64,000 bases of DNA from Candidatus Multivoradales bacterium (GCA_965248925.1 CBDFLE010000005.1:864001-928000); one strand, 5' to 3'. Shown: positions 48,488 to 64,000, numbered from the stretch's first letter. Notes: generated by a model not told the origin, from the letters alone. A program made the numbers and translations.

Positions 48488-48561
48488 CTTAGCCGCTGCA
48501 GAGGGTGAGGGGCGAGTCGGTATCGCATGCTAAGCTGCCCGCCGCTCGTACCCGTAAACCG

Positions 48562-50022: not shown

Positions 50023-50058
50023 ACCAATCGGTGGTCCGCGGAGCCGAACCCAAAACAG

Positions 50059-51930
50059 ATGCCGGTCTTACCCCAGTTCTTCCACCGACTCTTAGCGCCT
50101 CCGCTGCGTTCCATCAAGCGGCGCCTCGCCGAACGCAGCTATCACCGGGCCCTACGCCAAGGGCAAGCCGCCGGCGCCTACGTCTATCGCTTCGTCACCA
50201 CCGGGGCGCGGGGCGACGCCGGCATCGAGGTGCGACTGCGAGCCGAGGCCTGTACGCCGACAGCAGCAACCCGTTGGTGTGCCCAGCAGACTCTGGTCGA
50301 ACTCCAGGTAGTGGGTCTCGAGAACAACGGCCAAGTAGCCTGGCGGGTCGACGCCGGCGGCCCGGTGGACGAGCCGGAAGCCCTGCCGGCCAAATGGTTT
50401 CTGGCCCCCGGCGAGCTGCCGGACTTCTATCCCGCACTGCTGGAGTCTGCGTGGCTGGTAGCGGCCGGTGAGGTGCTCGACGCGGTCATCCTGGGAGAAC
50501 GCCTGGAGCTGCCCGAGGCCACCGAGGTCAGCGCAATCAGGATCCCTGAGCTACGCCGAGTGAGCTTGTTACGCGCCGCCGCTTGGTCCTACCAGCCCCA
50601 CTCCGACCAGGTGCAGCCGACGAGGAAACAGCTGTTAGTCAAGCAGATCGGTGCTGCCGGAGTGGCTGCAGAATCCCGCGCAGCCGAGTGCTGGACCACC
50701 ACTCGCCGGGGTCCTTATCTGGGCACCCACAACTTTGGGCCGGTGCTCGAGGTTGGCGTCCGTGACGCCGCCGCGACACCGCGGCGGCAACAATCCTTCT
50801 CCAAGCCCGTGCTGCTAGTGAGCAACTGCTTCCTGGCCCGCGGCGGCGCCGAGCACACCCTCTTCGAAACCCTGAGGGCATTGCAGGAGCGCTTCGAGAT
50901 CGCCATCGTCACCCTGGCCCCGCACCGCCCCGAGTTGGGCGACCGGCGAGAGGATTTCCGCCAGATCACCGAACGCATCTACTGCCTCGGCGATCTGGCC
51001 CACCCGGCGGCGATGTATGGCATGTTGCTATCACTAATCGACTCCCTCGGCGTCGAAGTGCTTTACAACGCCAACGGCACTACTTTGTTTTATCAGTATG
51101 CGCCACGGCTCAAGGCCGACCGTCCCGGTCTGCGCATTCTCGACCACCTGTACGATCACCTGCACGGCTACATCGAACACTACAGCCGGGCTCTGCTCGA
51201 CACGGTAGATGCCTGCGTCGCCGAAAACCGTCGTATCGCCGAGACCCTGGCTGCCGAACACGGTTGGCCGCGGCAGCGGGCGCCGGTGATCTGGCCTTGC
51301 GGCCGCCGCCGCGACGCCTTCCCCAGCACCGATCAGATCGCTGCCGTGCGCCGCCGCATTCGCCAACAGCTGAAAGTAGCCAACGACGACCTGCTGATCC
51401 TCACCGCCGCCCGCATGCACCCACAGAAACGGCCCATCGACCTGGTCCACCTGGCGCGAAGGGTCCGCGATCTGCGGCAGGTGCATTTCTTGGTAGTTGG
51501 CGGTGGCGAGTTGTCGGATCAGGTCGATCAGGAGATCAGCAACGATCCGGGAATCAACCTGCGGCGTCTGCCCTTCCGCAGCGACATCCCTGAGCTGATC
51601 ATCGCCGCCGATGTCGGCTGCCTGGTGTCGGAATACGAAGGTCTACCGGTGTTCATGCTCGAATGCCTGCAAGCCGGCCGGCCATTCCTGGGTACCGACG
51701 TGGGGGAGATGGGCTATGTGCTGCGCACCACTGGCGCCGGCCTAGTGACCGATCAGCCCGGCGACTTGGCGTCGCTGGAAGACCATGTGCGCAACCTGTG
51801 CGACCCGGAGTTGTGGTCTGAGTTGGCGCAGAAGGCGAGGGTGGCCGGGAATCGTTTCGACGTCGAGCACTGTGCCGAGCGCTATGCGGCAGTGTTCCTG
51901 GGTCAGGATCTAGTGCCGGAGGAGATCTGA
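50059..51930 (+). CDS. Glycosyltransferase family 4 with N-terminal extension
   Basis: LARGGAE, ARMHPQKRP, SEYEGLPVFMLECL, TDVG. Confidence 0.9.
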   Translation: MPVLPQFFHRLLAPPLRSIKRRLAERSYHRALRQGQAAGAYVYRFVTTGARGDAGIEVRLRAEACTPTAATRWCAQQTLVELQVVGLENNGQVAWRVDAGGPVDEPEALPAKWFLAPGELPDFYPALLESAWLVAAGEVLDAVILGERLELPEATEVSAIRIPELRRVSLLRAAAWSYQPHSDQVQPTRKQLLVKQIGAAGVAAESRAAECWTTTRRGPYLGTHNFGPVLEVGVRDAAATPRRQQSFSKPVLLVSNCFLARGGAEHTLFETLRALQERFEIAIVTLAPHRPELGDRREDFRQITERIYCLGDLAHPAAMYGMLLSLIDSLGVEVLYNANGTTLFYQYAPRLKADRPGLRILDHLYDHLHGYIEHYSRALLDTVDACVAENRRIAETLAAEHGWPRQRAPVIWPCGRRRDAFPSTDQIAAVRRRIRQQLKVANDDLLILTAARMHPQKRPIDLVHLARRVRDLRQVHFLVVGGGELSDQVDQEISNDPGINLRRLPFRSDIPELIIAADVGCLVSEYEGLPVFMLECLQAGRPFLGTDVGEMGYVLRTTGAGLVTDQPGDLASLEDHVRNLCDPELWSELAQKARVAGNRFDVEHCAERYAAVFLGQDLVPEEI

Positions 51931-51962
51931 GTCAGCCATCCCCACGGCCCCAGGCACAGCCC

Positions 51963-53780
51963 TTGAGAAGGCGCCTCGTTGGCTGGCTGTGGGACCACAG
52001 TCAGCTCTTCCGGCGACCGGCGAGACGCTTGCGGCAGCAGCTTTCCGTGGCTGCCTATTGGCTGCGCCACCGACTCGGCAGCAGCCAGCCACCAAGGGTG
52101 CTCTGCGTCGTCAGCGACCCGGCATCTGCCAGTGCCGGGCAGCTCGCCCATCCGGTTGTCCGCATCGCAGCGGATTCTGCCGAGATCTTGGTGAGCTTTG
52201 TCGCCCAGCAGACCGAGACTTCCATCGCCATCGAGTCGACCCGCGCCGCCAGCTATGTCTTGACCTTGGCCAAGGAGCCGACCTCCCTACCGGCCACCTT
52301 TCTCGAGTCCCTGCTCCTAGCGGTCGCTGCCGAGGATCTCTGTTGGGCCACCGGCGGCTGGGCGGGGCCCGCCCAAGCCAATGCGCCGGCAGGCGGGCTA
52401 AAGCTGGCTGCCGCCGTGGACAGTGCCAGCGCTACCCTCAGCCGCTTGCCAACCGCCAAGCCAAGCGCCGCACCAGAGGTTTATGGCCGGACCGTGCCGC
52501 ATATCACTTCGGCCTTGAATCTCGAGCTTATGCAACCTCTGGCGGCGCTACCTCTGCCTCGATCGGGGGCCTATCTGCTGCGCGATGATCAAGTCGCCGG
52601 GCGGATGGTGACCCAGCCAGTCTACGATCTCGCCGAGCGACTAGGTCGCTTGCCCACTCACGAAGGGCCGCCGACCGCCCTGTTGCTGCTGCCCTTCCTC
52701 GCTGTTGGCGGCGCCGAGAGCTTGCTCTTTGAGTTGCTCGAAGGTTGGGTCGGGCGCTACCGCATCCTGGTAGTCACCACCGAGCCCCACCGCGCCGAAC
52801 TCGGCCAAACGGTCGATCGCTGCCGCGCCCTGACCCCCCACGTCTACACCCTTGGCGACTGGCTACCCCGCGCCGCTTTGGCCGGCGCCTTGGCCCATCT
52901 GCTACGCCGCTGGCGGGTTAGTAGCCTGATGTCGTGGAATGGCACGGTAGCGTTCTACGACCTCGCCGGCGAGCTGCGCGCCGGCTGTCCCGGCCTGCGC
53001 CTGATCGATCAACACTTCAACCACCGCGGCGGTTGGATCGAGCGCATGACCCCGCGCCGCTTCGCCAAACTCGACGCCAGCGTAGCGGTCAATCAACCCA
53101 CGGCCCGAGCATTGCGCGAGCAGCACGGCGGCCCGCCGGAGAAGGTACGGCTGATTCACCATGGCGTCCGCCTGCCCAGGATCCGTTCAGCCGCCGAAAT
53201 CAGCCAGCGCAAGCAGCACCACCGCGAGCTCTTCGGCGTGCCCCAAGAAGCGCTAGTAGTGGGCACTTTCGTTCGCATGCATGCCCAGAAACGGCCCCTT
53301 GACGTACTCGCCTTGGCCCACCGCCTGCGGCACCGAGGAGTCTGGTTCGTACTCGCCGGTGGCGGCCCCTTGGACGCGGAGATCGACCGTGAGCTGGCTC
53401 GCCGGCCGGCTGACAACTTGCTGCGACTGCCGATGCAGGAAGACGTCGAGCCGCTCTACGCGATGGTCGACTTATGTCTCTCGACCTCGGATTTCGAGGG
53501 TCTGCCGGTATTCTTGCTCGACGCCCTGGCCCGGTCCTTGCCAGCGGTAGCCACCGCCGTTGGCGATGTACCCCTGCTGCTCGGTGATGGCGGCGGCCTG
53601 CTGGTGGACGAACCAGGGAATCTCGACGCCTTGGAAACAGCTCTATGCTCTCTCCTCGACCCCACTGAGCGCCAGCGGCGGGGTGCTATCGGCCGCGCCA
53701 CAGTGGCCGAGCGATTCGGTCTACAACGCTACCGCGAGGCTTACGAAGAACTGCTCTTCCCCGAGGGAGAGCAAGCGTGA
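51963..53780 (+). CDS. Glycosyltransferase family 4 (paralog of 50059-51930)
   Basis: LAVGGAE, RMHAQKRP, SDFEGLPVFLLDAL, TAVG. Confidence 0.9.
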   Translation: MRRRLVGWLWDHSQLFRRPARRLRQQLSVAAYWLRHRLGSSQPPRVLCVVSDPASASAGQLAHPVVRIAADSAEILVSFVAQQTETSIAIESTRAASYVLTLAKEPTSLPATFLESLLLAVAAEDLCWATGGWAGPAQANAPAGGLKLAAAVDSASATLSRLPTAKPSAAPEVYGRTVPHITSALNLELMQPLAALPLPRSGAYLLRDDQVAGRMVTQPVYDLAERLGRLPTHEGPPTALLLLPFLAVGGAESLLFELLEGWVGRYRILVVTTEPHRAELGQTVDRCRALTPHVYTLGDWLPRAALAGALAHLLRRWRVSSLMSWNGTVAFYDLAGELRAGCPGLRLIDQHFNHRGGWIERMTPRRFAKLDASVAVNQPTARALREQHGGPPEKVRLIHHGVRLPRIRSAAEISQRKQHHRELFGVPQEALVVGTFVRMHAQKRPLDVLALAHRLRHRGVWFVLAGGGPLDAEIDRELARRPADNLLRLPMQEDVEPLYAMVDLCLSTSDFEGLPVFLLDALARSLPAVATAVGDVPLLLGDGGGLLVDEPGNLDALETALCSLLDPTERQRRGAIGRATVAERFGLQRYREAYEELLFPEGEQA

Positions 53781-54751
53781 GCCAGCAACTGCCCTCGGTG
53801 TCGGTGGTCATTCCGTCCTACAACCACGCCGCCTACATTGAAGACGCGATCGACAGCGTGTTCGAACAGCAAATCGATGGACTCCAGCTGGTGGTGATCG
53901 ACGACGGTTCCTCAGACAACAGCCTGGAACTTATGCAGCGCTACCGCCAGCGGCCCGGTTTCGAGTTCTACCCGCAAGCCAACCAAGGAGCCCATGCGGC
54001 GCTCAACCGCGGCATCGAGCTGACCCATGGCGAGCTGATCCTGATCCTCAACTCCGACGACAGCTGGGACCCGGGCCGTATCGCCGACCTGCGCCAACGT
54101 TTCGCCGCCCACAAGGAGCTGGTCCTGGCGGCGAGCTGGCTGCGGGTAGTCGACGGTCAGGGGGAGACCCTGGCGATCAAACAGGCCTTCCACAATCTGC
54201 CCCCATGGTCGCCACCTCGACCTGGCCCTCAGCTCAGCGAGTCTGGTGAGCCCTCCTTGGCGCTGCTCGAAAGCAACTACATTTCGACCACCTCGAACGT
54301 CGCCTTCCGGCGCCAAGTTTGGCGGCAAGGTGTCCGCTTCCAGGCCCTACGCTACGCTCATGATTGGGACTTCGTACTTGCTGCTTGCCAGGTCGGTGAG
54401 CTAGAGATTCTCGAACAGCCTTCGGTGCGCTACCGCGTGCATGGCAAGAACACCATCCGAGAAGGCACTGACCTGGGCAAGGGCCTGATGCGCTTCGAGA
54501 TCCTCTGGTCGGTGGCCCGGCATGCCAACGCCCTGATCGAGCGCTGGGCGGCGAAGGGTTACGATCGGGCTGAACTCGAAAGGCGCCTGTGGACCTCGGC
54601 CCCGCGCTTTGGCAACGATGCATTGTTCGCCCAGCTCCTCGCTCTGCGCGGCGGCGCGCGCCATCCGGGTTCGGCCTACGACGCCCTGATCCGCCAGGAC
54701 CACCCCTTCCGCGATGCCGCGGTAAGACAGCTGGCGGCAGCGGCTGATTGA
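53777..54751 (+). CDS. Glycosyltransferase family 2
   Basis: SVVIPSYNH, IDDGSSD, GAHAALNRG, LNSDD, HDWDF. Confidence 0.92.
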   Translation: MSQQLPSVSVVIPSYNHAAYIEDAIDSVFEQQIDGLQLVVIDDGSSDNSLELMQRYRQRPGFEFYPQANQGAHAALNRGIELTHGELILILNSDDSWDPGRIADLRQRFAAHKELVLAASWLRVVDGQGETLAIKQAFHNLPPWSPPRPGPQLSESGEPSLALLESNYISTTSNVAFRRQVWRQGVRFQALRYAHDWDFVLAACQVGELEILEQPSVRYRVHGKNTIREGTDLGKGLMRFEILWSVARHANALIERWAAKGYDRAELERRLWTSAPRFGNDALFAQLLALRGGARHPGSAYDALIRQDHPFRDAAVRQLAAAAD

Positions 54752-54891: not shown

Positions 54892-55675
54892 ATTAGTACG
54901 GAATCGGTAGTGGCTCCGGCACCATCTTGAAATGGGCTTCAGAGAACGGATTGTCGTTGCTCGTGTAGGGCCGGTTCAGCGACCGTGTCATTCAGAGATC
55001 GGCCAGCAGTAGAGCCACCGGCTTGGATGCCATGCTCGAACCGCGGTCCGAGTGCAAGGTAAGTCGATCTCGCTCAACACCTTGCTTGTCAACACCTTGC
55101 TTGTCAACACCTTGCTTGTCAACACCTTGCTTCTCAACACTGTCGGCAATCAACCGCTTCGCGAGTCCTCCGGACTCGCGGCAGGCGAGCATCCAGCCGG
55201 CGATGTAGCGGCTGAAGACCTCCAGAATTACGTAAAGGTAGTAGTAGGTCCACTTCACCGGGCCATTGAGCTTGGTGATGTCCCACGACCACACCTCGTT
55301 CGGCCCTGTGGCCAGCAGTTCGGGCTTGGTGTAGTTGGGATGACGCCGCTGACGGCGTCGCTCGCGCAGCTCGCCCTCAGACTCCAGGACCCGGTACATG
55401 GTGCGCACCGAGCAGATATGGCGCTGATCCTCGTCCAGCAGCGCCGCCCAGACTTGACGCGGCGAGCGGTCGACGAAGCGCTCCGAGTGCAACACATCGA
55501 GGACCTCCTGGCGTTCAGCGGGCGTCAATGCCAGCGGCGGTCGAGGCCGCGTCGATAGCTGCGGCCCTGCGCCCTGCTGCCGACGGCGGCGATAGAAAGT
55601 GGCTCTGGGGACCGCCAAGGCGGCGCAGGCTGCCTGCACCCCCACCATCTCGGCCAGCGGCGCCACAGCGCTCAT
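54892..55675 (-). pseudogene. IS3 OrfB integrase-core transposase, inactivated
   Basis: PNEVWSWDIT, LHSDRG; TGA at 54992 followed in frame by ...NRPYTSNDNPFSEAHFK and then an apparent C-terminal deletion; 15-bp expansion inside. Confidence 0.85.
55074..55140. repeat. 15-bp tandem repeat, about 4.5 copies, inside IS3 orfB
   Basis: tcaacaccttgcttg units; encodes VEKQG-VDKQG-VDKQG-VDKQG-VE. Confidence 0.92.
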
Positions 55676-55700
55676 GACTGGCTCTCACTCGGCTCGATCC

Positions 55701-56054
55701 CTAGCAGCCGGGAAAGTTTTTTTGGACATCGATGATCGTCTCGGCTTTGTACAGCTGATGCTTGAGCCGGGCAATCTCACGCTCAAGCTCCGCGACGCGG
55801 CGGGCCTCAGCAGCGACCGGCCGACGCTTGCGACCGCGCTTCTTCGACAAACCGGCCAGAGCACTGGCATCGCGTTGCTGGCGCCAATTCGATAGTAGAG
55901 ATGAATACAGACCCTCCCGGCGGAGCAGGGCGCCAATCTCGCCGGGCTTGCTACAGGCGTCGGCAGCCTGGACGATGCTCAGCTTGTACGACGCGCTGTA
56001 CCGACGCCGCTTCGCCTTCTCAGTTACCTCTGGATCTCGTCGGTCAGCGCTCAT
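55701..56054 (-). CDS. IS3 OrfA HTH protein (A7 run near the 3' end, possibly frameshifted)
   Basis: DPEVTEKAKRRRYSASYKL...GEIGALLRREGLYSSLL..WR...IIDVQK. Confidence 0.8.
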   Translation of the reverse strand: MSADRRDPEVTEKAKRRRYSASYKLSIVQAADACSKPGEIGALLRREGLYSSLLSNWRQQRDASALAGLSKKRGRKRRPVAAEARRVAELEREIARLKHQLYKAETIIDVQKNFPGC

Positions 56055-56153
56055 ATCTCGCAGCTCGTGGCTTGGACTCGCCCTGGTGATTGCTCTCCAC
56101 GCCCTCACTAATTTCTCGGTACGGCAGTGTCTCACTTACATTGGCACAGAGGG

Positions 56154-56197
56154 CCGTGGCAGTACAGGGTGGAGATGGTAAGCTTGTGCTCGGTCAT
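56154..56197 (-). pseudogene. 5' stub of a second SymE-like gene, truncated by the IS3
   Basis: 41/44 nt identical to 63616-63659; encodes MTEHKLTISTLYCH versus MTEHKLTISALYRH; GAGGAGGA RBS upstream. Confidence 0.8.
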
Positions 56198-56377
56198 TGG
56201 GAATCCTCCTCTTCCGGAGAGCCGCCGGAACCCTGTCAACAGGGAATATGCGCTCTACGTGACTTTCCTGAACTTCATTTACGGTCTATGTGGATATACG
56301 TTATACGAGTATTTCAAACAAGAGGATATCCACCCTCGCCCACCGAAAACGAAAACTGCCCTTAGAATTGGGGAACG

Positions 56378-56749
56378 ATGCCGAGGAAAAAGCAGCCACC
56401 CACCGACTTTGGACATCGCCTGCCTGCCATCCGCAAGGCCAAAGGCTTCACCCAGGTTCAGCTTGCAGATGTGACCGGGACCACCCAGCGGGCGATCTCC
56501 TACTACGAAACGGAGGCCGGCTATCCACCGATGCCGGCGGTCGTCGCTCTGGCCCAGGCCCTCGGTGTTTCTGCCGATGAGTTGATGGGTCTCAAACAGC
56601 CCCAGGTCGACCTGCTCCAGGACGATCCCGAAACCCGCAGGATGTGGAAGAAGTTTCAGCAGGTCCGGACTCTGCCCGAGAGGGACCAACGAGCCGTAAT
56701 TCGGCTCGTCAATTCGCTTGCCTCAGCGAGTCAGCCCGCCACGGAGTAG
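56378..56749 (+). CDS. XRE-family HTH transcriptional regulator
   Basis: FGHRL..IRKAKGFTQVQLA..TGTTQRAISYYE...LAQALGVSADELMG. Confidence 0.92.
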   Translation: MPRKKQPPTDFGHRLPAIRKAKGFTQVQLADVTGTTQRAISYYETEAGYPPMPAVVALAQALGVSADELMGLKQPQVDLLQDDPETRRMWKKFQQVRTLPERDQRAVIRLVNSLASASQPATE

Positions 56750-56836
56750 GCTACGTCTGCTCTTTCGCTGGGGTTTTTCATGAGAACCCGGCCGAAGGCG
56801 AATCTCAAGAAACGGTCGATACCGGACCCCACGAAG

Positions 56837-57073
56837 TTACGCTTCGTCTCGAAGATGTAGATCGACGTTGATAGCGCACTCTTTCACGGTCCGCACAGCC
56901 GTTTTCCAATCCGCCCAAACAGCGGGATCAGCTGTCCCTTCATCCTGCAAGAGGCTCATACCTCCAAGCAGGGCGCCGAGATCGTCCGACTCGGTGCGTT
57001 GGTAGATCTCTTCGAGGAAAGCGAACATCGCGGCATAGGCTTCCCGTGTAGTTAAAGTATCCCCCATTGCCAC
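56837..57073 (-). CDS. Probable immunity protein of the upstream toxin
   Basis: 78-aa acidic ORF starting 2 nt after the toxin stop; position typical of cognate immunity genes. Confidence 0.7.
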   Translation of the reverse strand: MAMGDTLTTREAYAAMFAFLEEIYQRTESDDLGALLGGMSLLQDEGTADPAVWADWKTAVRTVKECAINVDLHLRDEA

Positions 57074-57075
57074 TC

Positions 57076-58161
57076 CTATTGGCCCGACAGGCCGGTTGTT
57101 GAGTCAAAGATTCGCGGTGTCTGGTTCAACCCGCCGTTTTTGATGACTCCATTGCGGCTCTGGACCCAAACCTGAGTGCCGTCGTCCAGTGTTCGTGCAG
57201 ACCAGACATTACCGAACTTGTCCGTTCCAAGGGCCGTTGAAGCGTCATCTGCGACCCCTTGCAGGAGCTTTCGGTTTGCTGGCGTGTCAGCGAGGTGACC
57301 AGGGGCGTCTCGGAAAATGTGCTTGATCTGACCAGGCTTACTGGGAAACCTCGCTGCCCCCCTTGGTACTCCGCGCGATCCCCGCTGAAAGACCTTACCA
57401 AGTCGAGCAAAGACAGCAGACAGCTTTGACCCAACATTAGGAAGTGCTTTTCGAGTAGCAGCGACAACAAGAGTCGTCTCGTCGACCGGCGAGAGAAGAC
57501 TGACGGCAAACAGCGCCCCCATACCTCGAGCATTGATGTTCTCGATGTATTGCTCCTGGGTGATCTCGCCCCGCATCAAGCGCTGTATATCTTGTTCGAG
57601 AGCCATCGCCGCACGGCTTTCTCGCCCATTGGAGTCGATCTCGTTGATCGGGTTGTTGGCCCCGTAGGTATAGCGGTTCCAGCTTCCAGGCGCGCTGACC
57701 TTGGCGGACCTCGCCGGATCGACACTCAAGAACCGCCCTAGCACTGGGCTACAATACCGAGCGTGCATGTAGTCCAGCTCGCTCCTCGCCCCGGTCCCGG
57801 TCTTGTCCCGCTCATGGCCAGTGAATTTCAGCTGAATCTCGTCAGCCTCCGCGCTGGTCGCCTCTTGACCAAAGGGAAAGTAGTTGTGCAACGCCACCTG
57901 CTGTCCGCCTCGGGTGAAGGGGACAGCCCGACGCGGTTTCCAGCTTGAGAGCTGGTAACCCTCTATGCCTGTTCTACTTAAGCCTCGCTCGGCCCTACTG
58001 CCGGCGGGGTCTTGGTGCTCGAAGGTCCAGAGGCGAGTTTCGGCGTAGCTCGACTCGGAGATCGGCGCGATCGCTGTTGCCGGCATCGTCACCGCCAGGA
58101 GCGCGACGACCAGCCCGAGCGCCATCGTCCAAGTGCTTCTTCCTTTAGCTGCCTGCCTCAT
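57076..58161 (-). CDS. Signal-peptide-bearing mini-Rhs polymorphic toxin
   Basis: Hydrophobic leader LGLVVALLAVTMPATA; Rhs-associated core YFPFG, KFTGHERD, DYMHARY..GRFLSVDP, NRYTY.NNP..IDSNG; C-terminal HIFRDAPGH...GNVW...GTQVWV domain. Confidence 0.85.
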   Translation of the reverse strand: MRQAAKGRSTWTMALGLVVALLAVTMPATAIAPISESSYAETRLWTFEHQDPAGSRAERGLSRTGIEGYQLSSWKPRRAVPFTRGGQQVALHNYFPFGQEATSAEADEIQLKFTGHERDKTGTGARSELDYMHARYCSPVLGRFLSVDPARSAKVSAPGSWNRYTYGANNPINEIDSNGRESRAAMALEQDIQRLMRGEITQEQYIENINARGMGALFAVSLLSPVDETTLVVAATRKALPNVGSKLSAVFARLGKVFQRGSRGVPRGAARFPSKPGQIKHIFRDAPGHLADTPANRKLLQGVADDASTALGTDKFGNVWSARTLDDGTQVWVQSRNGVIKNGGLNQTPRIFDSTTGLSGQ

Positions 58162-58242
58162 GCCGGGCCATTCTACGCCGCGGGTGGCGCTCGAAGACAG
58201 CGGCTAAAGGAGGAAGGGTGGTTGGTGCGGAGGCGGGATGCG

Positions 58243-58301
58243 GTTTTCTTAGGCCGCTTTCTTCGGGCAGTGGGTGTTTTCTTAGGTCGTTTTCGTCGGG
58301 C
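58243..58301. repeat. Two 26-bp direct repeats, 33-bp period
   Basis: gttttcttaggccgctttcttcgggc (58243-58268) and gttttcttaggtcgttttcgtcgggc (58276-58301). Confidence 0.8.
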
Positions 58302-58618
58302 TGGTCGTCGGAGCGAGCGCGGGTCTTTCCGGCAGTTTGGTGCCGGCGGCGCAGCCGCCAAACCAATCTGCACGTTGGGGGCGTGGTGGCGGCGGGGCCG
58401 GAGCCGAGCACGGCGACCGCAGGGCGCCGCGCGCAGGGTACGGAGGCCACGACGCAGGGCGGGTCTTGGGAGGAGGATGGGGAGCCCCCTTGAGGGGGCG
58501 GACGGGGCCGGGCCGAGCCGTCGCAGTGCTGGCTGGTGGATCTCGGCAAGGAGGCCCGGAGCGGGGCGTGGTTCCGAAGCCGCTGACCATCGCAGGCTCG
58601 CGGAGTGCTCACCCCAAG

Positions 58619-58644
58619 TTTCCATAATGCACGCGTTATGGAAA
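58619..58644. other. Symmetric dif/cer-like tyrosine-recombinase site (candidate att)
   Basis: TTTCCATAA-tgcacgcg-TTATGGAAA: perfect 9-bp arms with CATAA/TTATG inner cores as in E. coli dif, about 400 bp downstream of the recombinase gene. Confidence 0.7.
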
Positions 58645-59052
58645 GGCCGTAGGCCCGGAGCCGGGGCGTGTGAGGGCCAGGTCGGATAGGGCGCGCACTA
58701 TCGGACAGCGACCCATGCAAGCCGCGTGACACCTGGGAGGTCCGAGGAGGGGCCCAGGTGGCGCGCGGCTTGCGGAGCGGCTGGCCCGTGCCCGGAGGGA
58801 GCGCAGCGACCGGAGGGACACACGCCCCGGCGGAGCTTGGGGCGAGCTTTCGGAGACTCTTTTCTTGGACTACCTGAAGCCTCGCTCCGGGCCGGTGATC
58901 GGAGGGCTCAGGTGGTGGATCGCAGATGCTCGGGCCGGGGCGGGCAGGGGTGACAAAACAAACACCGCCGAGGGCTGCGTGGCCCGCGAGCGGAGGACGG
59001 CGCAGCCGGCCGCAGCGCGGGACCCGCAGACCCGGACCGCTTCGGGCGGGGG

Positions 59053-60126
59053 TCAGTCCTCCGCCTCGGTCTCGACTACATCGAGTAAGTCCTCGGCGGT
59101 CACTTCATCGCTGCCGTCTTCTTCTGTCGGCGGTGCCACCCGCCGCCCTAGCTTCGCGCCCGGATGGGTTGCCGAGTGGATCGACTTCAGTTTGCGGATC
59201 GATACCTGAGTGTAAATCTGCGTCGTCTCCAGCTTGGCATGGCCGAGCATCTGCTGAATGAAGCGGATATCCGCACCACCTTCGAGCATCAGCGTCGCCA
59301 TCGTGTGGCGGAAGAGATGGCAAGCGCCCGACTTGCCGAGATCGGCGGCGAGCACGTAGCCGCGCACCAGCTGACTCATTCGCGACGGAGCAAACGGCGT
59401 CCCCTGGTTGGTGAGAAAGAGCGTCCCGCCGTCCGGCTCGACCATCAGCGACGGCCGTACCTCAGTGACGTAGCGATCGATCCAGGCCAGCGCCCGCTCG
59501 CCGATCGGGATCATCCAGTCTTTCCGCCCCTTGCCCTGGCGCACCATCACCGTTCCGCGTTCGATGTCGAGATCGTAACGGCCGAGGCCGATCAGCTCAG
59601 CCCGGCGCATGCCGGTCGAGTAGAAGACTTCAAGGATCGTCCGGTCGCGCATCCCGAGTGGGTCGGCGGTGTCGGGCTGGTTGAGCACCTGGTCGGCTTC
59701 CGAGGCGGTCAGCACCGCCGCCGGCAACCGGTGCTCCAGCTTCGGCAGCTCCAGCTCCGAGGCCGGGTTGTAGAGCAGGTGGTTGGCCCGAGTCGCCCAC
59801 TTGAAGAAAGCCCGCACCGGCACCAGCCGCGAGTGCTGCGCCCGGAAAGACAGCGGCCGCCCGTCCCCAGGCTTGCGGTAGTGGTAGAGCCACCTGGCGT
59901 AGCGCTCCAGGATCGGCTTGGTCACTTCCGACGGCCGCGACACCCCACGCTCTTCACACCATGCGATGAGAAACGAGAGGTATAGATGCCGGTTCTCAAC
60001 GGTTCGTGGAGAGTAGTTCTTGATCGCCATCCACTCCAGGTACTGACCCGCCATCACCGCGAAGCCCCGAGGGTCGGTTGGATTGCCCGGCAAGAGGCGG
60101 ATCTTGCGCTCGCCACGGCGCGGCAT
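59053..60126 (-). CDS. XerC/XerD-like site-specific tyrosine recombinase
   Basis: N-terminal SAM-like domain; catalytic STGMRRAEL (R), GKGRK (K), HLFRH, LGHA, TTQIYT (Y). Confidence 0.95.
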   Translation of the reverse strand: MPRRGERKIRLLPGNPTDPRGFAVMAGQYLEWMAIKNYSPRTVENRHLYLSFLIAWCEERGVSRPSEVTKPILERYARWLYHYRKPGDGRPLSFRAQHSRLVPVRAFFKWATRANHLLYNPASELELPKLEHRLPAAVLTASEADQVLNQPDTADPLGMRDRTILEVFYSTGMRRAELIGLGRYDLDIERGTVMVRQGKGRKDWMIPIGERALAWIDRYVTEVRPSLMVEPDGGTLFLTNQGTPFAPSRMSQLVRGYVLAADLGKSGACHLFRHTMATLMLEGGADIRFIQQMLGHAKLETTQIYTQVSIRKLKSIHSATHPGAKLGRRVAPPTEEDGSDEVTAEDLLDVVETEAED

Positions 60127-63100
60127 CAGGGCCCCTCGACCGCCGCCGAGCCGCCGGTACGACGCCCAGATTTACGACATGACGGGCCGTTTTCTCGCAC
60201 CCCCTTATATGCGTTTTTTGCCGAAACCCCACGATTTCCGGCCGAAGTCGTTGATTCTGCTTGGGAAACTGCACCCCGACCACCCCCCGACACCCCCCCG
60301 ACTTGGGGCCGACTTGGCCCCGACTTCTCAGCTTCAGACCCCGACTTCTTTTCGTCGTACCTGAGTGTTTCGACCTCGATCAGCCCCGGCAGTCGCGGCC
60401 GCTCCGGTTCGTCGCTGGCCACGTAAACCAGCTCGTAGACAAAGCTCTGCCCCCGCCCGCCCTGATGCACCAGCAGATACTCAAACTCCTCAAGACGGCG
60501 TAGGTGCAGCTTCAGCTGCGTATTGCCCCAGCCGGTGTGCTCGCGCACCGCCCGCCGGCTGAAACGGTAGTCCGGCCGATCCATCGCCAGCGCCTCACAG
60601 GCTTCGCTGACCATCTCGTCGATCAGCCCCAGCAGGCGCCGCGTCTGCGGCGGCAGCTCATCGAGCGAGCGCCCCAAGACTTCGTGCGCCAGGCGGTTGG
60701 CTGTCTCGATGTCTGTGGCCACCACTTCGACGTACTCCACCTCTCGCCCGTCGACCACCGCCAGCTTCACCTCTCGCTGGTATTGATGCAAAAGAGCAAT
60801 CACGTCGATCAGCGTCAGGTACTTCTCGTGGTCCCGGCGGGTGCGGATTTGCGTATCGAGAAAGGTAAGTTCCGGAGCAAAGGGATTGACCACCGCCAGC
60901 GGCCGCAGCAGCCGCTGCGCGTTCTGGTGCAGCGCCATCACCCCGTCGCGCCGGGTGCGCGAGAGTAGCCCCTCCAGCGTCCGCCGCTGCCGCTGCAGCC
61001 GGTGAATCGCCCGCGTCTGCTCTCGCGCCTCGTCCACCGAGAGCACCAAGCAGCGATTCAAAAGCTCTTCATCGATGTCGATTGCCGTGGTCGTCAAGAA
61101 GATCATCACCGGCCCTTCGACGTGGTACTCGTGCGTCACCAGCTTGCCCGTTGAAGCATCCTTGCCGGTCGAGGCAATCGTCAGCTCGCCCTCCGACTGA
61201 AGCAGCTTCAAGGCGTAGCTAGCCCGCTCGGCCCCCTCCTCCTCGACGATCGCCAGGATCTTGTGCTGCAGATCCGTTTCGCCCATGTAGAACAGCGATT
61301 GCCCGGTCATCGCCGAGTACTTCACTTGCTGCTCACCTGGCATCAGCGACAGCACCGCCTCCATCAGCGCCGACTTGCCGGCCGCCGAGCTCGACTGCAC
61401 CACCACCGCCAAAGGCCGATCCAGAAAGCGCGAGGTGGCCGCCATATAGCCCATGAGCTTGTTGGTTTCCTCGCCCACCACCCCGCAGCGCTCGAAGTCC
61501 GCGAGGATGCGCACCAAGAGATCTGGTGAGCGCAGCAGCTCAAGCGCCGCTTCCTTCTCTCCCTCTGACAGCTCCACCGCCGTCGACTGCGGCTCGAGTG
61601 CTGAGCGGATCTGCTCGTCCTGCAGCTCCTCGAGCTTCAGCAGCACCTTGCCCAGATCCTTCTTGACCACCTTCTCATCGACCCCCAGTTCAGCGGCTGC
61701 CGCCCGCTGAAACACCGCGCGCGGCCGCGCAGCGTAGAGATCGAAGGTATCGACGTGGAAGGCGTCGCCGCGCGACGCCAAAACATTGACCTTGAGCACG
61801 TCGTAAGCCAGGTTCTTCGGCAGACCGCGAATCCTGTAGCGACGATCGCCCAGCGACAGCACCACCTCCTGATCGCGCACTTCCGCCGGCATATCTGGCG
61901 GAGGCGGGGCGGGCAATGGGGAGGCTTCGGCCGGGGCGACCGGCGCCAATACCGCCTCTGCGGCGGTATTAGGCCGTGTCGATTGCTCTGCCGGCGGTGC
62001 CAATGAGCCCACTATGGGCTCGTTGCCCAGTTTCACGTCGGGCGCCTTGCCTTTCCCGAGCCACTGTGCTTTGCGGATCACCACCCCCAGCGACTTCGCG
62101 GCTGGCGTCACCTTCAGCGCATATTCGTTGGCGTCCATGCCGCGCGGAAAGTGAATGCGATAGGCGTCGATCCCGGCACCCACCAGCTTCTCGGCCAGCT
62201 TCCCGGCGGCCTTCTCGCCGGCATCGTCCCGGTCGTAGGCGATCAGCACCCGCTCGACTCCGTGGCCACCGAAGGCTGCCAGCATCTCCGCGGTGAAACC
62301 CTGGATGCCGTAGGCGCTGGTGACGTTGCGGTAGCCCGCGCACCAGAAGGTCAGAGCGTCGATCAGCGACTCGCAAAGGATGATCTCGGTCGAGGCCACC
62401 AGAGCTTCCGCATTGAAGATCCCTCGATGCGGACCCGGCAGATAGAGATGCAAGGGTGTCCCCTTGCGAAGATTCAGTGTGATCTTTCGGCCGTAGATCT
62501 CCACCACCTGGCCTGTTGAATCGAAGACCGGAAAGACGATCGAGCCATTGAAGTGCTCATGACCCGACTTGCGCAGCACGCCGAGCTTCTGCAATCGACC
62601 CCGCATCTCCTTACCCGCCTTCAGCTGCTTCGATGGCAGTCGATAGCCCAGCGTCCGGTTGGCGAAGCCAAGCCTGAAATGCTCGATCATCTCCGGGTGC
62701 TTCAGCCCTCTGCTCTCCAGATAAGCCAGCGCCTCCGGGCTCTCCTTCAAAGCCTCGTGGTAGTAGCCGACGACCTGACCGAGTAGCTCCGCGTCCTCTG
62801 CTTCCGCCACCACCGGCGAAGGCAGGGCCGGCGCCGAAGGCAACGCCTCTGCGACCGCCTCCGCCGGCAGATCCGAGCGCAGCAGCTCGACCGCGTGGCG
62901 AAACGAAACCCCGCGATCTCGCATCACCCAATCGATCACCGACCCGCCCGCCTGGCAGGCGCCCAGGCAATGCCACAGATTCTTCTTCGGCGAGATCACC
63001 AGCGACGGCTCGCGGTCGTCGTGAAACGGGCAGAGCCCCAGCAGGTCCGCCCCGTGGCGTTTCAGTTTCACCCCACGGGCCAGGGCCAGGCGCTCCACCG

Positions 63101-63149
63101 ATACTTCTCGCTTTAGTCGCTCTACCTCGGCTTCTGGAATCCTGCTCAC
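60126..63149 (-). CDS. CHC2 zinc-finger DnaG-type primase fused to a P-loop ATPase/helicase
   Basis: CPFH...WHCLGAC, TOPRIM LCESLIDAL / YDRDDAG, Walker A-like SSSAAGKS, IVEEEG, LLNR; GTG 63149 overlaps the upstream stop. Confidence 0.9.
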   Translation of the reverse strand: MSRIPEAEVERLKREVSVERLALARGVKLKRHGADLLGLCPFHDDREPSLVISPKKNLWHCLGACQAGGSVIDWVMRDRGVSFRHAVELLRSDLPAEAVAEALPSAPALPSPVVAEAEDAELLGQVVGYYHEALKESPEALAYLESRGLKHPEMIEHFRLGFANRTLGYRLPSKQLKAGKEMRGRLQKLGVLRKSGHEHFNGSIVFPVFDSTGQVVEIYGRKITLNLRKGTPLHLYLPGPHRGIFNAEALVASTEIILCESLIDALTFWCAGYRNVTSAYGIQGFTAEMLAAFGGHGVERVLIAYDRDDAGEKAAGKLAEKLVGAGIDAYRIHFPRGMDANEYALKVTPAAKSLGVVIRKAQWLGKGKAPDVKLGNEPIVGSLAPPAEQSTRPNTAAEAVLAPVAPAEASPLPAPPPPDMPAEVRDQEVVLSLGDRRYRIRGLPKNLAYDVLKVNVLASRGDAFHVDTFDLYAARPRAVFQRAAAAELGVDEKVVKKDLGKVLLKLEELQDEQIRSALEPQSTAVELSEGEKEAALELLRSPDLLVRILADFERCGVVGEETNKLMGYMAATSRFLDRPLAVVVQSSSAAGKSALMEAVLSLMPGEQQVKYSAMTGQSLFYMGETDLQHKILAIVEEEGAERASYALKLLQSEGELTIASTGKDASTGKLVTHEYHVEGPVMIFLTTTAIDIDEELLNRCLVLSVDEAREQTRAIHRLQRQRRTLEGLLSRTRRDGVMALHQNAQRLLRPLAVVNPFAPELTFLDTQIRTRRDHEKYLTLIDVIALLHQYQREVKLAVVDGREVEYVEVVATDIETANRLAHEVLGRSLDELPPQTRRLLGLIDEMVSEACEALAMDRPDYRFSRRAVREHTGWGNTQLKLHLRRLEEFEYLLVHQGGRGQSFVYELVYVASDEPERPRLPGLIEVETLRYDEKKSGSEAEKSGPSRPQVGGVSGGGRGAVSQAESTTSAGNRGVSAKNAYKGVRENGPSCRKSGRRTGGSAAVEGP

Positions 63150-63370
63150 TGTGCCGCCCCCGACTCCACCGGAGTAAGCACCAAACGATCCTGCTCGACC
63201 TCCACCCGCAGCCTCTCCCCGCAGCGAAACCCCGCCGCTTCTAGCCAAGCACCCCGCATCCGCACAAACGGCACAAGCCGCACCGAGCACGGGCCGTTGA
63301 CGTAGTGCGGCGCACGGGGCTCGTGCAGGGTAGAGATCGTCAGATATCGCTCAGCTCTCGGCTCAGACAC
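63146..63370 (-). CDS. SymE-family (AbrB-fold) small protein
   Basis: PFVRMRGAWLEAAGFRCGERLRVEV...LVLT matches the SymE pattern PxxxLxGxWLxxAGFxxGxxvxVxV. Confidence 0.85.
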   Translation of the reverse strand: MSEPRAERYLTISTLHEPRAPHYVNGPCSVRLVPFVRMRGAWLEAAGFRCGERLRVEVEQDRLVLTPVESGAAQ

Positions 63371-63659
63371 AGGCCACTCCCGCCAGGCGACCCGCCGAGA
63401 CCTCCTCGATCCGGCCGATCTGATCCGCCGGCACCCACACCACCGGCTGCATTTCCCTCTCCTCCTCGCCCTCTTCCACCCGCGTCACCACCAAACGCCC
63501 GTCACCCACGACGTCCACCCGCACCTGGGCTCCAGGATAGAAGCCGGCGTCGCGCATCCACAGCCCCGCCAGCTGCAGCAGCGGTAGCTGCGCGGACTTG
63601 GGGAAGGCGTGCCAACCGTGGCGGTACAGGGCGGAGATGGTTAGCTTGTGCTCGGTCAT
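63363..63659 (-). CDS. SymE-family (AbrB-fold) small protein
   Basis: PLLQLAGLWMRDAGFYPGAQVRVDV..GRLVVT; GGAGG RBS. Confidence 0.85.
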   Translation of the reverse strand: MTEHKLTISALYRHGWHAFPKSAQLPLLQLAGLWMRDAGFYPGAQVRVDVVGDGRLVVTRVEEGEEEREMQPVVWVPADQIGRIEEVSAGRLAGVACV

Positions 63660-63712
63660 CGGTCTGCCTCCAAATTTCTTCAGTTAACTCAGATGCAACT
63701 CATCTGTGCTCT

Positions 63713-63741
63713 ACAGTACCAATCGGTTGCATTGGTGTCAA
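63713..63741 (-). promoter_or_regulatory. Sigma70 promoter of the SymE-primase-recombinase operon, with an operator palindrome in its spacer
   Basis: Minus strand TTGACA-17-TACTGT; ACCAAT-N7-ATTGGT palindrome (63718-63736) fills the spacer. Confidence 0.7.
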
Positions 63742-63753
63742 GCCTGCAATGTC

Positions 63754-63782
63754 TTGACGCATACCTTCGGGTTGCCTAGAAT
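63754..63782 (+). promoter_or_regulatory. Sigma70 promoter of the XRE gene
   Basis: TTGACG-17-TAGAAT. Confidence 0.7.
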
Positions 63783-63828
63783 TAACTCAGGACGGAAAAA
63801 GGCGTACAAGAAAGGACTGGAAGGTTCT

Positions 63829-64000
63829 ATGAGCCAAGAAAGCGGCACGATCAAGACACGGTTCGGCAAGCGAGTTCTTGAGCTACGCAAGACTCGCAGC
63901 TGGAAGCAAGACGAGCTTGGCAAAAAGCTCGGCACTTCGGGCGTCGTCATCGGGCGCTACGAGCGAGGCGAGGTGATGCCGTCGATCAAGGTGGCTCAGA
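63829..64000 (+). CDS. XRE-family HTH regulator (partial, runs off the window)
   Basis: Manual translation MSQESGTIKTRFGKRVLELRKTRSWKQDELGKKLGTSGVVIGRYERGEVMPSIKVAQ... Confidence 0.88.
   Translation, partial: MSQESGTIKTRFGKRVLELRKTRSWKQDELGKKLGTSGVVIGRYERGEVMPSIKVAQ

Follow-up and report, generated by a model that had tools for sequence, protein, structure and literature searches.

Positions 56,154 to 64,000 of the window, the whole stretch of 64,000 nucleotides of Candidatus Multivoradales bacterium (GCA_965248925.1) that was analysed, probably hold the last complete copy of an integrative, self-replicating element of ~6-8 kb, one of a family whose members reside inside Rhs genes, inserted in frame at a short site termed J. 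In the direction of transcription, a unit opens with an Rhs tip and its toxin, followed by an immunity gene and a divergent XRE; some lineages then have SymE-like genes. Next come a primase with an MCM-like part and a Xer recombinase, and the unit closes with a palindrome-bearing non-coding stretch of ~0.9 kb and a short leader open reading frame (ORF) ending in one arm of J.

The primase-Xer module is present in 14 copies in this genome, of which seven stand in tandem at the window locus, repeating every 7,854 bp, and another three form a second array; the gene arrangement in the window is far from chance. The first-pass annotation had recognised a tandem array of a Xer/primase element in which both the associated Rhs toxin/immunity cassettes and the XREs vary; this description stands, as do the positions that it gave for the individual features and the gene overlaps of 8, 4 and 1 nt. 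The left neighbour is, as proposed there, cut off by an IS3-family insertion sequence (54925-56153, minus strand; Pfam HTH_Tnp_1 and rve), one of ~35 copies in the genome at 92-93% identity, with an orfA (55701-56135, minus) and an orfB fragment (54992-55675, minus) that carries an expanded 15-nt repeat. The unique sequence that follows (56154-56377) has no SymE start left and may be what remains of the control region between the divergent XRE and operon in this older, coreless unit. The XRE-type repressor of the truncated unit, XRE_L (56378-56749, plus strand; HTH_3, 8.9e-12), has no other copy in the genome, differs from the XRE at 63706 and scores 64 bits against the RstR-family model, below the cut-off of 80. 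More units lie to the right: past 64000, where the annotation had suggested looking, there is a further mini-Rhs on the minus strand (64960-66015), with a 145-aa ORF after it (64500-64937), and the palindrome recurs (C5:930473). Units also occur as identical pairs, in this genome and in the related genome G001, a pattern that in-frame insertion does not predict.

The mini-Rhs gene of the window (57076-58161, minus strand; TIGR03696, Rhs_assc_core, 61.6 bits over residues 94-179 with a cut-off of 32.5) had been taken for a self-contained exported cargo. Comparison of the copies indicates instead that it is a chimera, codons 1-81 being element sequence and codon 82 onwards coming from the neighbouring cassette. 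The leader is identical in 12 of 12 main-family mini-Rhs genes, all of which switch to Rhs-like sequence at one nucleotide. With its 81 codons, start included (57918-58161, minus), it is 100% identical in 10 aligned units, ends in the same 45 nt before the junction in 12 copies and resembles, to the eye, a signal peptide (a charged start, a hydrophobic stretch and AIA-P). Codons 82-361 (57076-57917, minus; TIGR03696 and similarity to full-length Rhs) comprise the displaced Rhs tip, a linker and the C-terminal toxin domain; similarity to full-length Rhs genes begins at 57917, and the segment 57076-57350 is unique in the genome. No family matched the toxin domain, for which Atlas scores did not exceed 0.85. 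Two nucleotides past the mini-Rhs stop starts a 78-aa ORF (56837-57073, minus) with no family in Pfam, NCBIfam or PHROGs, which by its position is the putative immunity gene of the displaced cassette. J, the proposed crossover site, is a 28-bp dyad at codon 81/82 (57900-57927, minus; 11-6-11, with nine of the 11 arm positions complementary). The junction between element and target falls within it in all 12 main-family copies, and the J-type end sequence also abuts three other target contexts.

A full-length Rhs gene lies directly upstream of the element at every locus examined (n=5). The order at these array heads is Rhs frame, tip and toxin, XRE, core, the signal-peptide Rhs frames measuring 1,678-1,719 aa at four loci and 1,459 aa at the fifth. 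These upstream frames were classed as full-length Rhs with YD/RHS repeats and the core-end domain, the corresponding models matching in the window's tip (TIGR03696) and in G001 (RHS_repeat); the downstream tips retain a core fragment and are each followed by a small ORF, for which position suggests an immunity role, and in relatives MafI and NTF2-fold immunity families are recognised. At all five heads, unit similarity begins inside the full-length Rhs gene, at the codon that matches mini-Rhs codon 82, not in non-coding DNA. Nucleotide-level comparison with uninterrupted paralogous genes resolved four junction classes. In two diverged elements the terminal sequence is of the same kind (GCGTCGGG followed by a CTRTCC-type arm), but the places that it abuts are different. 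The target of one is the mid-shell of a ~5,000-aa Rhs-family gene, and four uninterrupted paralogues read through the site; that of the other lies ~400 codons ahead of the tip in another Rhs family and is read through by seven further copies, six at other loci and one within the array's own region. Insertions are found in three different Rhs families of one genome, and a single-copy insertion carries one non-coding region rather than two halves. The repeat unit, as these alignments delimit it, ends at J inside the toxin gene and consists of the cargo (Rhs tip, toxin and immunity), XRE, replication genes, Xer, non-coding DNA and the 81-codon leader.

Such an arrangement suggests how the elements may move. 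The circular form would have the leader joined via J to the element's own tip, and would recombine at J, in frame, with a matching short sequence inside a resident Rhs gene. After insertion the frame of the full-length Rhs shell would continue into the new tip and its toxin; the previous tip would be pushed downstream together with its own toxin and immunity gene and gain the element's start codon and signal-peptide-like leader, becoming a mini-Rhs. Repeated insertion would stack units, the newest beside the Rhs gene, to give an array of toxin/immunity cassettes, and exchange between any pair of J sites would free circles and alter the toxin of the large Rhs. The Xer protein presumably catalyses the exchange at J, the primase-helicase and iterons would drive replication of the circle, the XRE is likely to repress the operon, and circles may pass between cells.

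A different reading, unlikely in our judgement though worth weighing, is that host homologous recombination inserts and excises the circle via Rhs fragments, and that Xer and the palindrome, P, only resolve multimers. Resolution of plasmid multimers is the role of the cer and psi sites, and P, being dif-like, perfectly conserved and situated behind xer, would suit it. The arms of J are unlike dif, whereas P is dif-like, so the recombinase could act on P instead. Tips in this genome share 200-2,900 nt with their targets, and with at least 200 nt in common RecA-type single crossovers would give the same topology; the tip region is a mosaic, with a patchwork of shared polymorphisms, and at three loci the cargo copies on either side are identical or match at 95-98%. 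For one element, flanked by sites at C6:1342650 and C6:1350251, the central regions of these two sites disagree at a single position. The position of the junction along the Rhs tip varies among lineages, distant relatives included, where no 11-6-11 dyad was found at the junctions; the exact J pattern occurs in only one of 76 related loci. The reading corresponds to a two-crossover model already published by Jackson et al. (2009; PMC2935791).

Host recombination is hard to reconcile with G001, in which four tandem units lie behind a 3,747-aa RHS-repeat protein (RHS_repeat, 359 bits) with the junction in the toxin linker. The large gene, the leader with cargo A and the leader with cargo B have only ~11 nt in common at the junction, which is too little for RecA, and the site between leader and cargo A is a perfect 11-6-11 palindrome that shares 20 of 28 positions with J. 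Similarity always starts at the edge of the central 6-7 nt of the junction site. A third genome, L011, has the same site as G001 with another cargo. Taken together, the junction classes and G001 support, at the level of sequence, in-frame insertion into Rhs genes.

Between Xer and the leader lies a non-coding region (58162-59052, 891 bp) that matches no Rfam family; its left side varies by deletions and its right side is nearly invariant. P (58619-58644) is a 26-bp dif-like palindrome, CATAA-N8-TTATG, with 9-nt arms and an 8-nt spacer. Its sequence is unchanged in 12 of the 14 elements, two diverged ones included, there are no other close matches to it in the genome, and a CATAA-N6-TTATG site is absent from the entire genome; among relatives, a P-like motif stands behind 19 of 85 xer ends. 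P is a candidate resolution site or part of an origin. The stretch from P to J shows near-zero diversity, which the in-frame insertion model does not explain.

The first-pass annotation had placed the unit boundary at P, with units running from P to P, an intact exported mini-Rhs as cargo and Xer acting at P; the neighbouring Rhs gene would then be incidental or reached later by homologous exchange. The conservation and dif-like form of P suit this, as do deletions that end at P in two units and an identity that climbs from 97.9% to 100% at P in one comparison, the latter confounded by the IS3 there (IS3 is inserted next to P in two units). It is nevertheless very improbable, given where similarity begins at the five heads and the one non-coding region of single-copy insertions. 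The leader type in G001 follows the upstream core and not the downstream cargo, so that in a duplicated pair the P-to-P segments differ and the J-to-J segments are identical. The two of 14 elements without P, finally, retain all genes.

The recombinase assigned to J in the insertion model (59053-60126, minus strand) is a Xer-family tyrosine recombinase that scores 427.7 bits against NF002331 (the NCBIfam model named 'XerC', curated cut-off 371), relatives scoring 386-442 bits. Its PF00589 match (3e-37) spans positions 2-169 of the 172 in the profile, and the catalytic R..K..HxxR..H..Y residues are visible by eye (MRRAEL, GKGRKD, HLFRH, LGHAK and QIYTQ). A role in chromosomal dimer resolution as XerC or XerD was considered and rejected, there being 14 copies, each within a mobile unit; the XerC and XerD equivalog models give 222 and 217 bits with cut-offs of 335 and 330. 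Identity with integron integrases was likewise rejected (TIGR02249, 101 bits; cut-off 265).

The adjoining gene (60126-63149, minus) encodes a fusion of a DnaG-type primase with an MCM-like AAA+ ATPase. It starts with GTG at 63149, as read directly, and a relative uses the same start. The layout is zinc ribbon, catalytic core, Toprim, MCM-like AAA+, winged-helix end and low-complexity tail; PF01807, PF08275 and PF13155 exceed their Pfam cut-offs, and PDB primases are matched, with 2au3 at 1.9e-25. The DnaG equivalog TIGR01391 reaches only 160 bits (cut-off 283.6), and the host has a separate dnaG-like gene (C6:2582752). A standard DnaG with a C-terminal DnaB-binding domain was ruled out, as the C-terminal half is MCM-like instead: the structure model (pLDDT 80) matches MCM chains in Foldseek with a probability of 1.00, E values of 6.6e-10 and weaker and TMq of 0.38-0.46, at a sequence identity of 10-17%. 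A Walker A GKS is present, and GKS and IVEEE motifs are invariant across 46 sequences. This half is accordingly modelled as having an MCM-like helicase fold. Inside the 3' end of the gene, five AAGTCGG-type repeats form an iteron-like run (60280-60359, minus), a candidate origin whose first 20 nt are unchanged at synonymous sites in relatives of several phyla.

The operon opens with two small SymE/AbrB-fold proteins (63363-63659 and 63146-63370, both minus), which score 33.1 and 47.2 bits against PF08845 (cut-off 29) but only 27-28 bits against the E. coli SymE equivalog (cut-off 132). As they head a replication operon, a DNA-binding, AbrB-fold role is as likely for them as one in a type I toxin-antitoxin. 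Divergent from the SymE-SymE-primase-Xer operon is the XRE-type repressor of the window unit (63706-64000, plus strand, continuing to 64200 outside the window; HTH_3, 9.2e-8). The unit contains no capsid or conjugation genes, as the annotation had noted, and none for packaging or helper interference among its ORFs in Pfam, NCBIfam or PHROGs.

Relatives were confirmed by tblastn at at least 536 loci in several phyla, from which 76 distinct loci were kept. The first-pass annotation had predicted linkage of such homologs to toxin genes, and gene order and strand bear this out: in all 76 the gene behind the primase is Xer, and 67 Rhs tip matches share the primase strand against one on the opposite strand. 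Where at least 3 kb of upstream sequence was present, a tip was found upstream in 23 of 31 loci; among the eight misses, one (L065) has Rhs by Pfam and seven have none upstream, some standing beside conjugation genes or other cargo. Behind xer, a tip was found in 14 of the 27 loci with enough downstream sequence. The primase strand carries 36 occurrences of a terminal motif (TACGA, 4-12 nt, GTC[AG]GG) and the opposite strand none, 16 of them standing directly before a tip fragment; the conservation of this motif across phyla, even where the element has no leader ORF, also argues against host recombination. The same gene order is found in a Massilia isolate, a Nitrospirales MAG and a Ralstonia megaplasmid, and the XREs of relatives score 131-141 bits against the RstR model (cut-off 80).

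A circular form exists as an 11,289-bp Lonsdalea plasmid with XerC, primase, HTH and SymE genes and two toxin/immunity cassettes, the toxin frames of which open with Rhs tip remnants. Terminal overlaps of 63-129 nt occur on five metagenomic contigs. In the contigs of the one sample analysed here, no circle, excision product or recombination was observed, and contig depth equals the chromosomal copy number. The earlier description of the element as self-replicating is in keeping with this 11.3-kb relative and with the MCM-like helicase part. That the elements are immobile, their arrays being products of segmental duplication and primase and Xer relics or parts of a domesticated host Rhs toxin switch, would account for the identical doublets, the stop codons or IS insertions in several copies and the contig depth, but is scarcely credible in view of the spread of ~60% identical copies over many phyla, plasmids and the neighbourhood of conjugation genes included, of the small circular plasmid, of uninterrupted primase frames in eight of the 14 copies and of insertions in three Rhs families.

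Rhs C-terminal displacement and orphan tip arrays were reportedly treated by Koskiniemi et al. in 2014. Jackson et al. (2009; PMC2935791) describe a full-length rhs followed by displaced tips, each with a core fragment and an immunity gene. An older tip is moved aside by a new one, not deleted, and the authors propose that tips pass through a circular intermediate and form an episomal pool; their model has no vehicle for the tips. Here, in contrast, a recombinase, a replication module and a repressor accompany every tip, and the displaced tip receives a defined leader at a fixed nucleotide. Ordinary orphans of this genome retain core fragments that vary in length (56-911 codons). As in integrons, the recombinase is a Xer-related tyrosine recombinase, the newest cassette lies next to the expression platform with older ones moved down the array, and cassettes go through circular intermediates (proposed, for the present elements); unlike in integrons, recombinase and replication genes come with each cassette, coding sequence is the place of insertion, in frame, and no attI/attC pair is evident.

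Phages and islands may bring a replacement gene end for their target, as with tRNA genes or icd for e14 and phage 21. The present elements would likewise insert site-specifically in a gene and supply a new 3' end, but where such replacements conserve the function, here a different toxin is installed and the displaced end gains a start and leader. CTX-type and other mobile elements use Xer at dif; RstR-like repressors, a dif-like site, tandem arrays and toxin cargo are common to CTX-type elements and this family, which differs in having its own recombinase and predicted replication by a primase-MCM-like protein, in lying elsewhere than at the chromosomal dif and in lacking filamentous-phage genes. 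Phage satellites (PICI-like) and tycheposons combine repressor, primase-helicase and integrase, are small and accumulate in tandem; the family shares this gene core, the small size and the tandem copies, but has no visible packaging or helper genes, and its target is a toxin gene whose product is rewired. The recombinase-associated immunity arrays (rAID) of Bacteroidales and XerC/D-linked polyimmunity loci (PMC12247911, PMC3482391) have a tyrosine recombinase beside arrays of orphan immunity genes and toxin fragments, with one recombinase per array, no replication genes and, in the available portions of these papers, no described in-frame link to a full-length toxin. No description in print of such Rhs-inserted replicating elements was found.

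The chances seem to us evenly balanced that the family is the episomal reservoir and vehicle of Rhs tips predicted in 2009, whose own Xer would insert it in frame, re-arm the toxin, archive the old toxin and immunity gene behind a leader and let cells switch toxins. If true, the family would amount to an integron-like system with cassettes that are each a replicon in their own right, spread over Acidobacteriota, Proteobacteria, Nitrospirota and others.

The feature at the end of the window is best read as an integrative, replicative element that carries and installs Rhs toxin tips. On this reading, the element would insert in frame into an Rhs gene, so that the incoming tip fuses to the shell of that gene and the displaced tip fuses to a leader encoded by the element. 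The topology described here is very probably correct; the full statement, which includes an Xer-mediated exchange at a defined site, is likely, though with distinctly less assurance.

The gene content described in the first-pass annotation was borne out in full by ORF calls and by Pfam and NCBIfam searches, and so was the palindrome. Two SymE-like genes, the primase and Xer, all on the minus strand, form the tight operon proposed, with overlaps of 8, 4 and 1 nt. SymE-like 1 (63659-63363) and SymE-like 2 (63370-63146) have SymE_toxin domains scoring 33.1 and 47.2 bits (Pfam cut-off 29). The primase starts from a GTG at 63149 and comprises a DnaG-type zinc ribbon, a catalytic core and Toprim. 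Xer (60126-59053) matches the NCBIfam NF002331 ‘XerC’ subfamily model with 427.7 bits against a cut-off of 371, and falls below the cut-offs of the NCBIfam equivalogs for XerC, XerD and integron integrases. An XRE gene recognized by ORF and domain search starts at 63706 and is divergent from the operon. Behind Xer lie 891 bases of non-coding DNA containing a perfect 9-8-9 palindrome, P (58619-58644), and then the mini-Rhs gene (57076-58161, minus strand), whose 361-aa product has a signal-peptide-like start and the Rhs core-end domain TIGR03696 at residues 94-179 (61.6 bits). There follow a 78-aa ORF without a family, a different XRE gene (XRE_L, 56378-56749) and a copy of IS3. No family in Pfam, NCBIfam or PHROGs was found for the toxin domain or the putative immunity protein of the window; Atlas scores do not exceed 0.85, and MafB, Ntox35 and colicin D are weak leads only. 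An Rfam search of 57800-59200 returned only a sub-threshold miRNA match. IS3 has about 35 copies in the genome; its orfB copy at 54992-55675 is truncated and has an expanded 15-nt repeat (QGVDK four times), and 45 nt at 55073-55119 are absent from the contigs of the other copies. Left of IS3, at 48505-54751, translations read by eye are of ordinary chromosomal genes outside the element, namely a sulfatase-like ORF and several glycosyltransferase-like ORFs.

The genome (7.98 Mb, six contigs), of which the window is C5:864001-928000, has 14 copies of the primase-Xer pair. Seven tandem elements occupy contig C5 from 920 kb to 985 kb, the last one inside the window; a second array of three lies at C6:3.495-3.519 Mb, and single elements are found at C4:72-77 kb, C4:254-258 kb, C6:1.345 Mb and C6:3.624 Mb. 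At all five loci examined, a full-length signal-peptide Rhs frame, the head, stands directly upstream of the element. The head frames have 1,678-1,719 aa at four loci and 1,459 aa at the fifth, where the frame is probably broken, and the order at each is the Rhs frame through its own tip and toxin, then the XRE gene, then the replication and Xer core. Among the 55 Rhs tips of the genome, one and the same 95-codon open frame precedes 12, which are the element-linked mini-Rhs genes; the ordinary orphan tips retain core fragments of variable length (56-911 codons). No fewer than three Rhs families are represented among the tips; more than 20 frames have at least 1,380 codons before the tip, and some reach about 5,000 aa. 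An orphan array of seven tips at C6:2.444-2.457 Mb is without any element.

The limits of the unit were drawn from an alignment of ten units and five big Rhs genes, omitting two units of the C5 array with IS3 in the non-coding DNA (U3 and U4) and two diverged elements (C4_b and C6_b). All ten units have the same sequence over codons 1-81 of mini-Rhs and the non-coding DNA on their left. They resemble the big Rhs genes from a single nucleotide on, at codon 81/82 (window 57917), past which the tips are polymorphic and mosaic; the 45 nt preceding this switch point are the same in 12 of 12 main-family copies. Among nine units, with IS-interrupted and diverged ones omitted, the mean pairwise difference is 0.02-0.06 in the core, 0-0.005 from P to codon 81 and 0.09-0.23 thereafter. 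As the leader is invariant and the tip polymorphic from one nucleotide on, mini-Rhs is a chimera in which an element-encoded leader is joined to the tip of the neighbouring cassette. The window's displaced toxin domain, its immunity ORF and XRE_L each lack a second copy in the genome. The conserved core, from the start of SymE-like 1 to codon 81, measures 5.74 kb, and the variable part of about 2.1 kb comprises tip, toxin, immunity gene, XRE and promoter. Some 600 nt from P to the end of the leader (57939-58530) are virtually invariant in nine units whose cores differ by 2-6%, and concerted evolution or a recent sweep may be responsible.

The two diverged elements have ends of the same kind as the main family, GCGTCGGG and then a CTRTCC-type arm, and abut different targets. 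C4_b lies mid-shell in a giant Rhs-family gene, of which four paralogues are uninterrupted across the site, and the target-side sequence starts at the same nucleotide at either end of the insertion. C6_b interrupts a third Rhs family some 400 codons ahead of the tip; its site is read through by seven further copies (six elsewhere, one close to the array itself), and the flanking copies have 98.3% identity over 2.9 kb.

The closest related genome, G001, is a Thermoanaerobaculia MAG with a 75% identical primase. Here a 3,747-aa RHS-repeat protein is followed by four tandem units, and leader and cargo are joined in the toxin linker, about 220 residues past the tip, where the big gene, leader with cargo A and leader with cargo B have only about 11 nt in common. 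The joint of leader and cargo A is a perfect 11-6-11 palindrome, with a chance at a given place of about 2e-7. The homologous 28-bp dyad site of the window, J (57900-57927), shares 20 of 28 positions with it and has arms complementary at 9 of 11; in a third genome (locus L011) a J-type site with an 8/11 arm match adjoins another cargo again. All four junction classes agree in that target similarity starts at the border of the central 6-7 nt. The exact pattern GCTGT-N18-ACAGC is found 23 times in the window's genome against about 9 expected, six of them at J, and once (L012) in 927,638 nt of related loci. A scan for 11-6-11 dyads at 20 junctions of distant relatives gave two weak 8/11 matches, neither at the junction.

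We infer that Xer performs the exchange at J, given how little sequence the partners share in G001, the dyad layout of the site and a conserved end motif. The genome of the window would also allow RecA-type crossovers between its tips, since these share long similarity; the tips are also mosaic. Whereas the first-pass annotation had drawn the unit from palindrome to palindrome, with mini-Rhs as an intact exported cargo toxin, the leader variant in G001 tracks the upstream core and not the downstream cargo, which disfavours that boundary and favours a unit running from junction to junction. The earlier interpretation stands in part, its observations entirely. A further exchange point may lie at a (G/A)VPRG motif, where three cassettes with a common 190-aa pre-toxin linker diverge in their toxin domains (window 57350-57360; C4:68122 and C5:973639) and where the G001 element joins its cargo.

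The palindrome P is dif-like and is identical in 12 of the 14 elements, two of these having flanks only about 86% alike; a strict CATAA-N6-9-TTATG scan matched at only 19 of 85 xer ends of relatives. It may serve as a resolution site, as part of an origin or as a true Xer site. In two units, IS3 lies immediately beside P (at C5:938331-939970 and at the corresponding position of the following unit) and is accompanied by a 3-nt target duplication, AAC; in two others, deletions end at P. Breaks or insertions may be especially frequent at P.

A pattern scan of one genome per species yielded 575 stretches, 536 of which were confirmed by tblastn (at least 536 loci), and 76 distinct loci were kept. 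These relatives, about 57-75% identical, come from Acidobacteriota, Beta-, Gamma- and Deltaproteobacteria, Nitrospirales, Anaerolineae, Bacteroidia and others, and primase is followed by Xer in all 76. An HMM built from the tips of the window's genome matched 67 times on the primase strand and once on the opposite strand. By this HMM, which missed the Rhs of L065 and the short tip remnants of a Lonsdalea plasmid (found by eye or Pfam), a tip lies upstream in 23 of 31 loci with at least 3 kb there, L065 being one of the misses and having Rhs by Pfam, and behind xer in 14 of 27 with room downstream; ten short contigs start inside a tip. Tandem units occur in at least ten other genomes, and in four of these arrays unit-to-unit similarity stops within conserved Rhs tip motifs. 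The full order of Rhs, immunity gene, XRE, primase, Xer and partial tip was confirmed in several relatives: a Massilia isolate, MAGs of Nitrospirales, Gammaproteobacteria and Thermoanaerobaculia, and the megaplasmid of Ralstonia solanacearum Po82. Other neighbours of some members are a relaxase with a coupling protein, a NikA-like gene and peptidase M23 cargo. An adjoining TrwB-type coupling protein with a TrwC relaxase, or a carried NikA-like gene (L080:473-5955, L046:13857-14225), is a possible route of cell-to-cell transfer. The Massilia isolate has two more orphan tips (L057:16050-18815), each with the element end motif, one with an RstR-like XRE and with no primase or Xer between them; they look like core-less scars of older units.

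This end motif, TACGA, 4-12 nt, GTC[AG]GG, is present in distant relatives at 36 places on the primase strand and absent from the opposite one. Sixteen copies stand directly before an Rhs fragment, often with a TAGGNAAAA hairpin loop ahead and even without a leader ORF; the other 20 lie inside the primase 3' tail. There a 20-nt stretch coding for YDEKKSG is identical at synonymous positions across phyla (window 60280-60359; L013, L014, L015, L016, L033, L044 and L056) and, in the window, heads five AAGTCGG-type repeats. Synonymous-site identity and the repeats therefore point to a DNA-level signal embedded in the gene, and the repeats are putative iterons of an origin. The non-coding DNA of relatives holds several hairpins: L011 and L012 have conserved stems behind xer (GCAGAGTG...CACACTGC), and in L086, L061, L049 and L066 the stems vary and A-rich loops are conserved (AAACNNC or CTAGGNAAA). 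They might be priming or binding signals. A scan for 9-nt inverted repeats behind xer gave GC-rich hairpins too numerous to read.

Several findings concern replication. A model of primase residues 440-930, built from 46 sequences in which the Walker motifs are invariant (pLDDT 80), matches MCM helicase chains (Foldseek probability 1.00, E from 6.6e-10, TMq 0.38-0.46), and a feature search on the primase points to the plasmid replication-protein domain PF27228. Relatives are present in 186 plasmid records. The circular 11,289-bp plasmid of Lonsdalea populi N-5-1 encodes XerC, the primase, an HTH regulator, SymE and a truncated second primase. Its cargo is two toxin/immunity pairs, one made up of an endonuclease and an NTF2-fold immunity protein, the other of an HNH toxin and a small ORF; both toxin frames start with the last Rhs core motif and have an end-motif-like sequence ahead. 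This plasmid is the module in autonomous form, its cargo being Rhs tips. Five metagenomic contigs, 6.3-7.9 kb long, overlap at their ends by 63-129 nt, as a circle or a perfect tandem repeat would. None of the eight sequencing runs listed for the sample is recorded as RNA. In Logan contigs of one sample (four runs), the contig with the invariant leader is 7-13 times as deep as the one with the single-copy cargo, which fits 12 identical copies. No joint pointing to a circle or a deletion was found in these runs; tandem and circle junctions are identical, and short contigs therefore cannot tell them apart. The two units closest to the window end do not differ at all (100% identity; period 7,854 bp), and identical units recur as pairs along the C5 array, (U7,U6) U5 (U4,U3) (U2,U1), and as two pairs in G001 (C50:192494-216864). 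The recurring pairs are predicted by none of the models considered; one idea is that they may arise from insertion of dimeric circles.

Few bacterial toxin-delivery proteins are as widespread as Rhs proteins, which are well known for their exchangeable tips. Jackson et al. (2009; PMC2935791) proposed that tips are displaced by homologous recombination with a circular intermediate, and since then tip arrival and displacement have been explained by this hypothetical intermediate without a known carrier or enzyme. Steele et al. (2017; PMC5727410) note integrase-like genes near Rhs genes of bee-gut bacteria without a mechanism, Zhang et al. (2012; PMC3482391) note XerC/D genes adjoining polyimmunity loci, and the rAID arrays of Bacteroidales combine a tyrosine recombinase with orphan immunity genes (PMC12247911). 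No primase-Xer element tied to Rhs was described in the full-text literature searched, subscription journals and supplements being outside its scope. Two chloroplast-genome papers naming rhs, primase and integrase were rejected, as these are separate genes in different algae.

For each of the parts still lacking, the element provides a candidate, namely a replicon, a recombinase, a defined 28-bp site and a repressor. Since cultivated bacteria (Massilia isolates) and a small plasmid have the module, the model is testable at the bench, and the site and recombinase might serve for in-frame cassette exchange. With the model it would become understandable that MAG assemblies fall apart at Rhs loci, leaving contigs of about 6-8 kb, that orphan cassettes continue to be expressed at a level which preserves immunity, and that toxin/immunity repertoires pass from one phylum to another.
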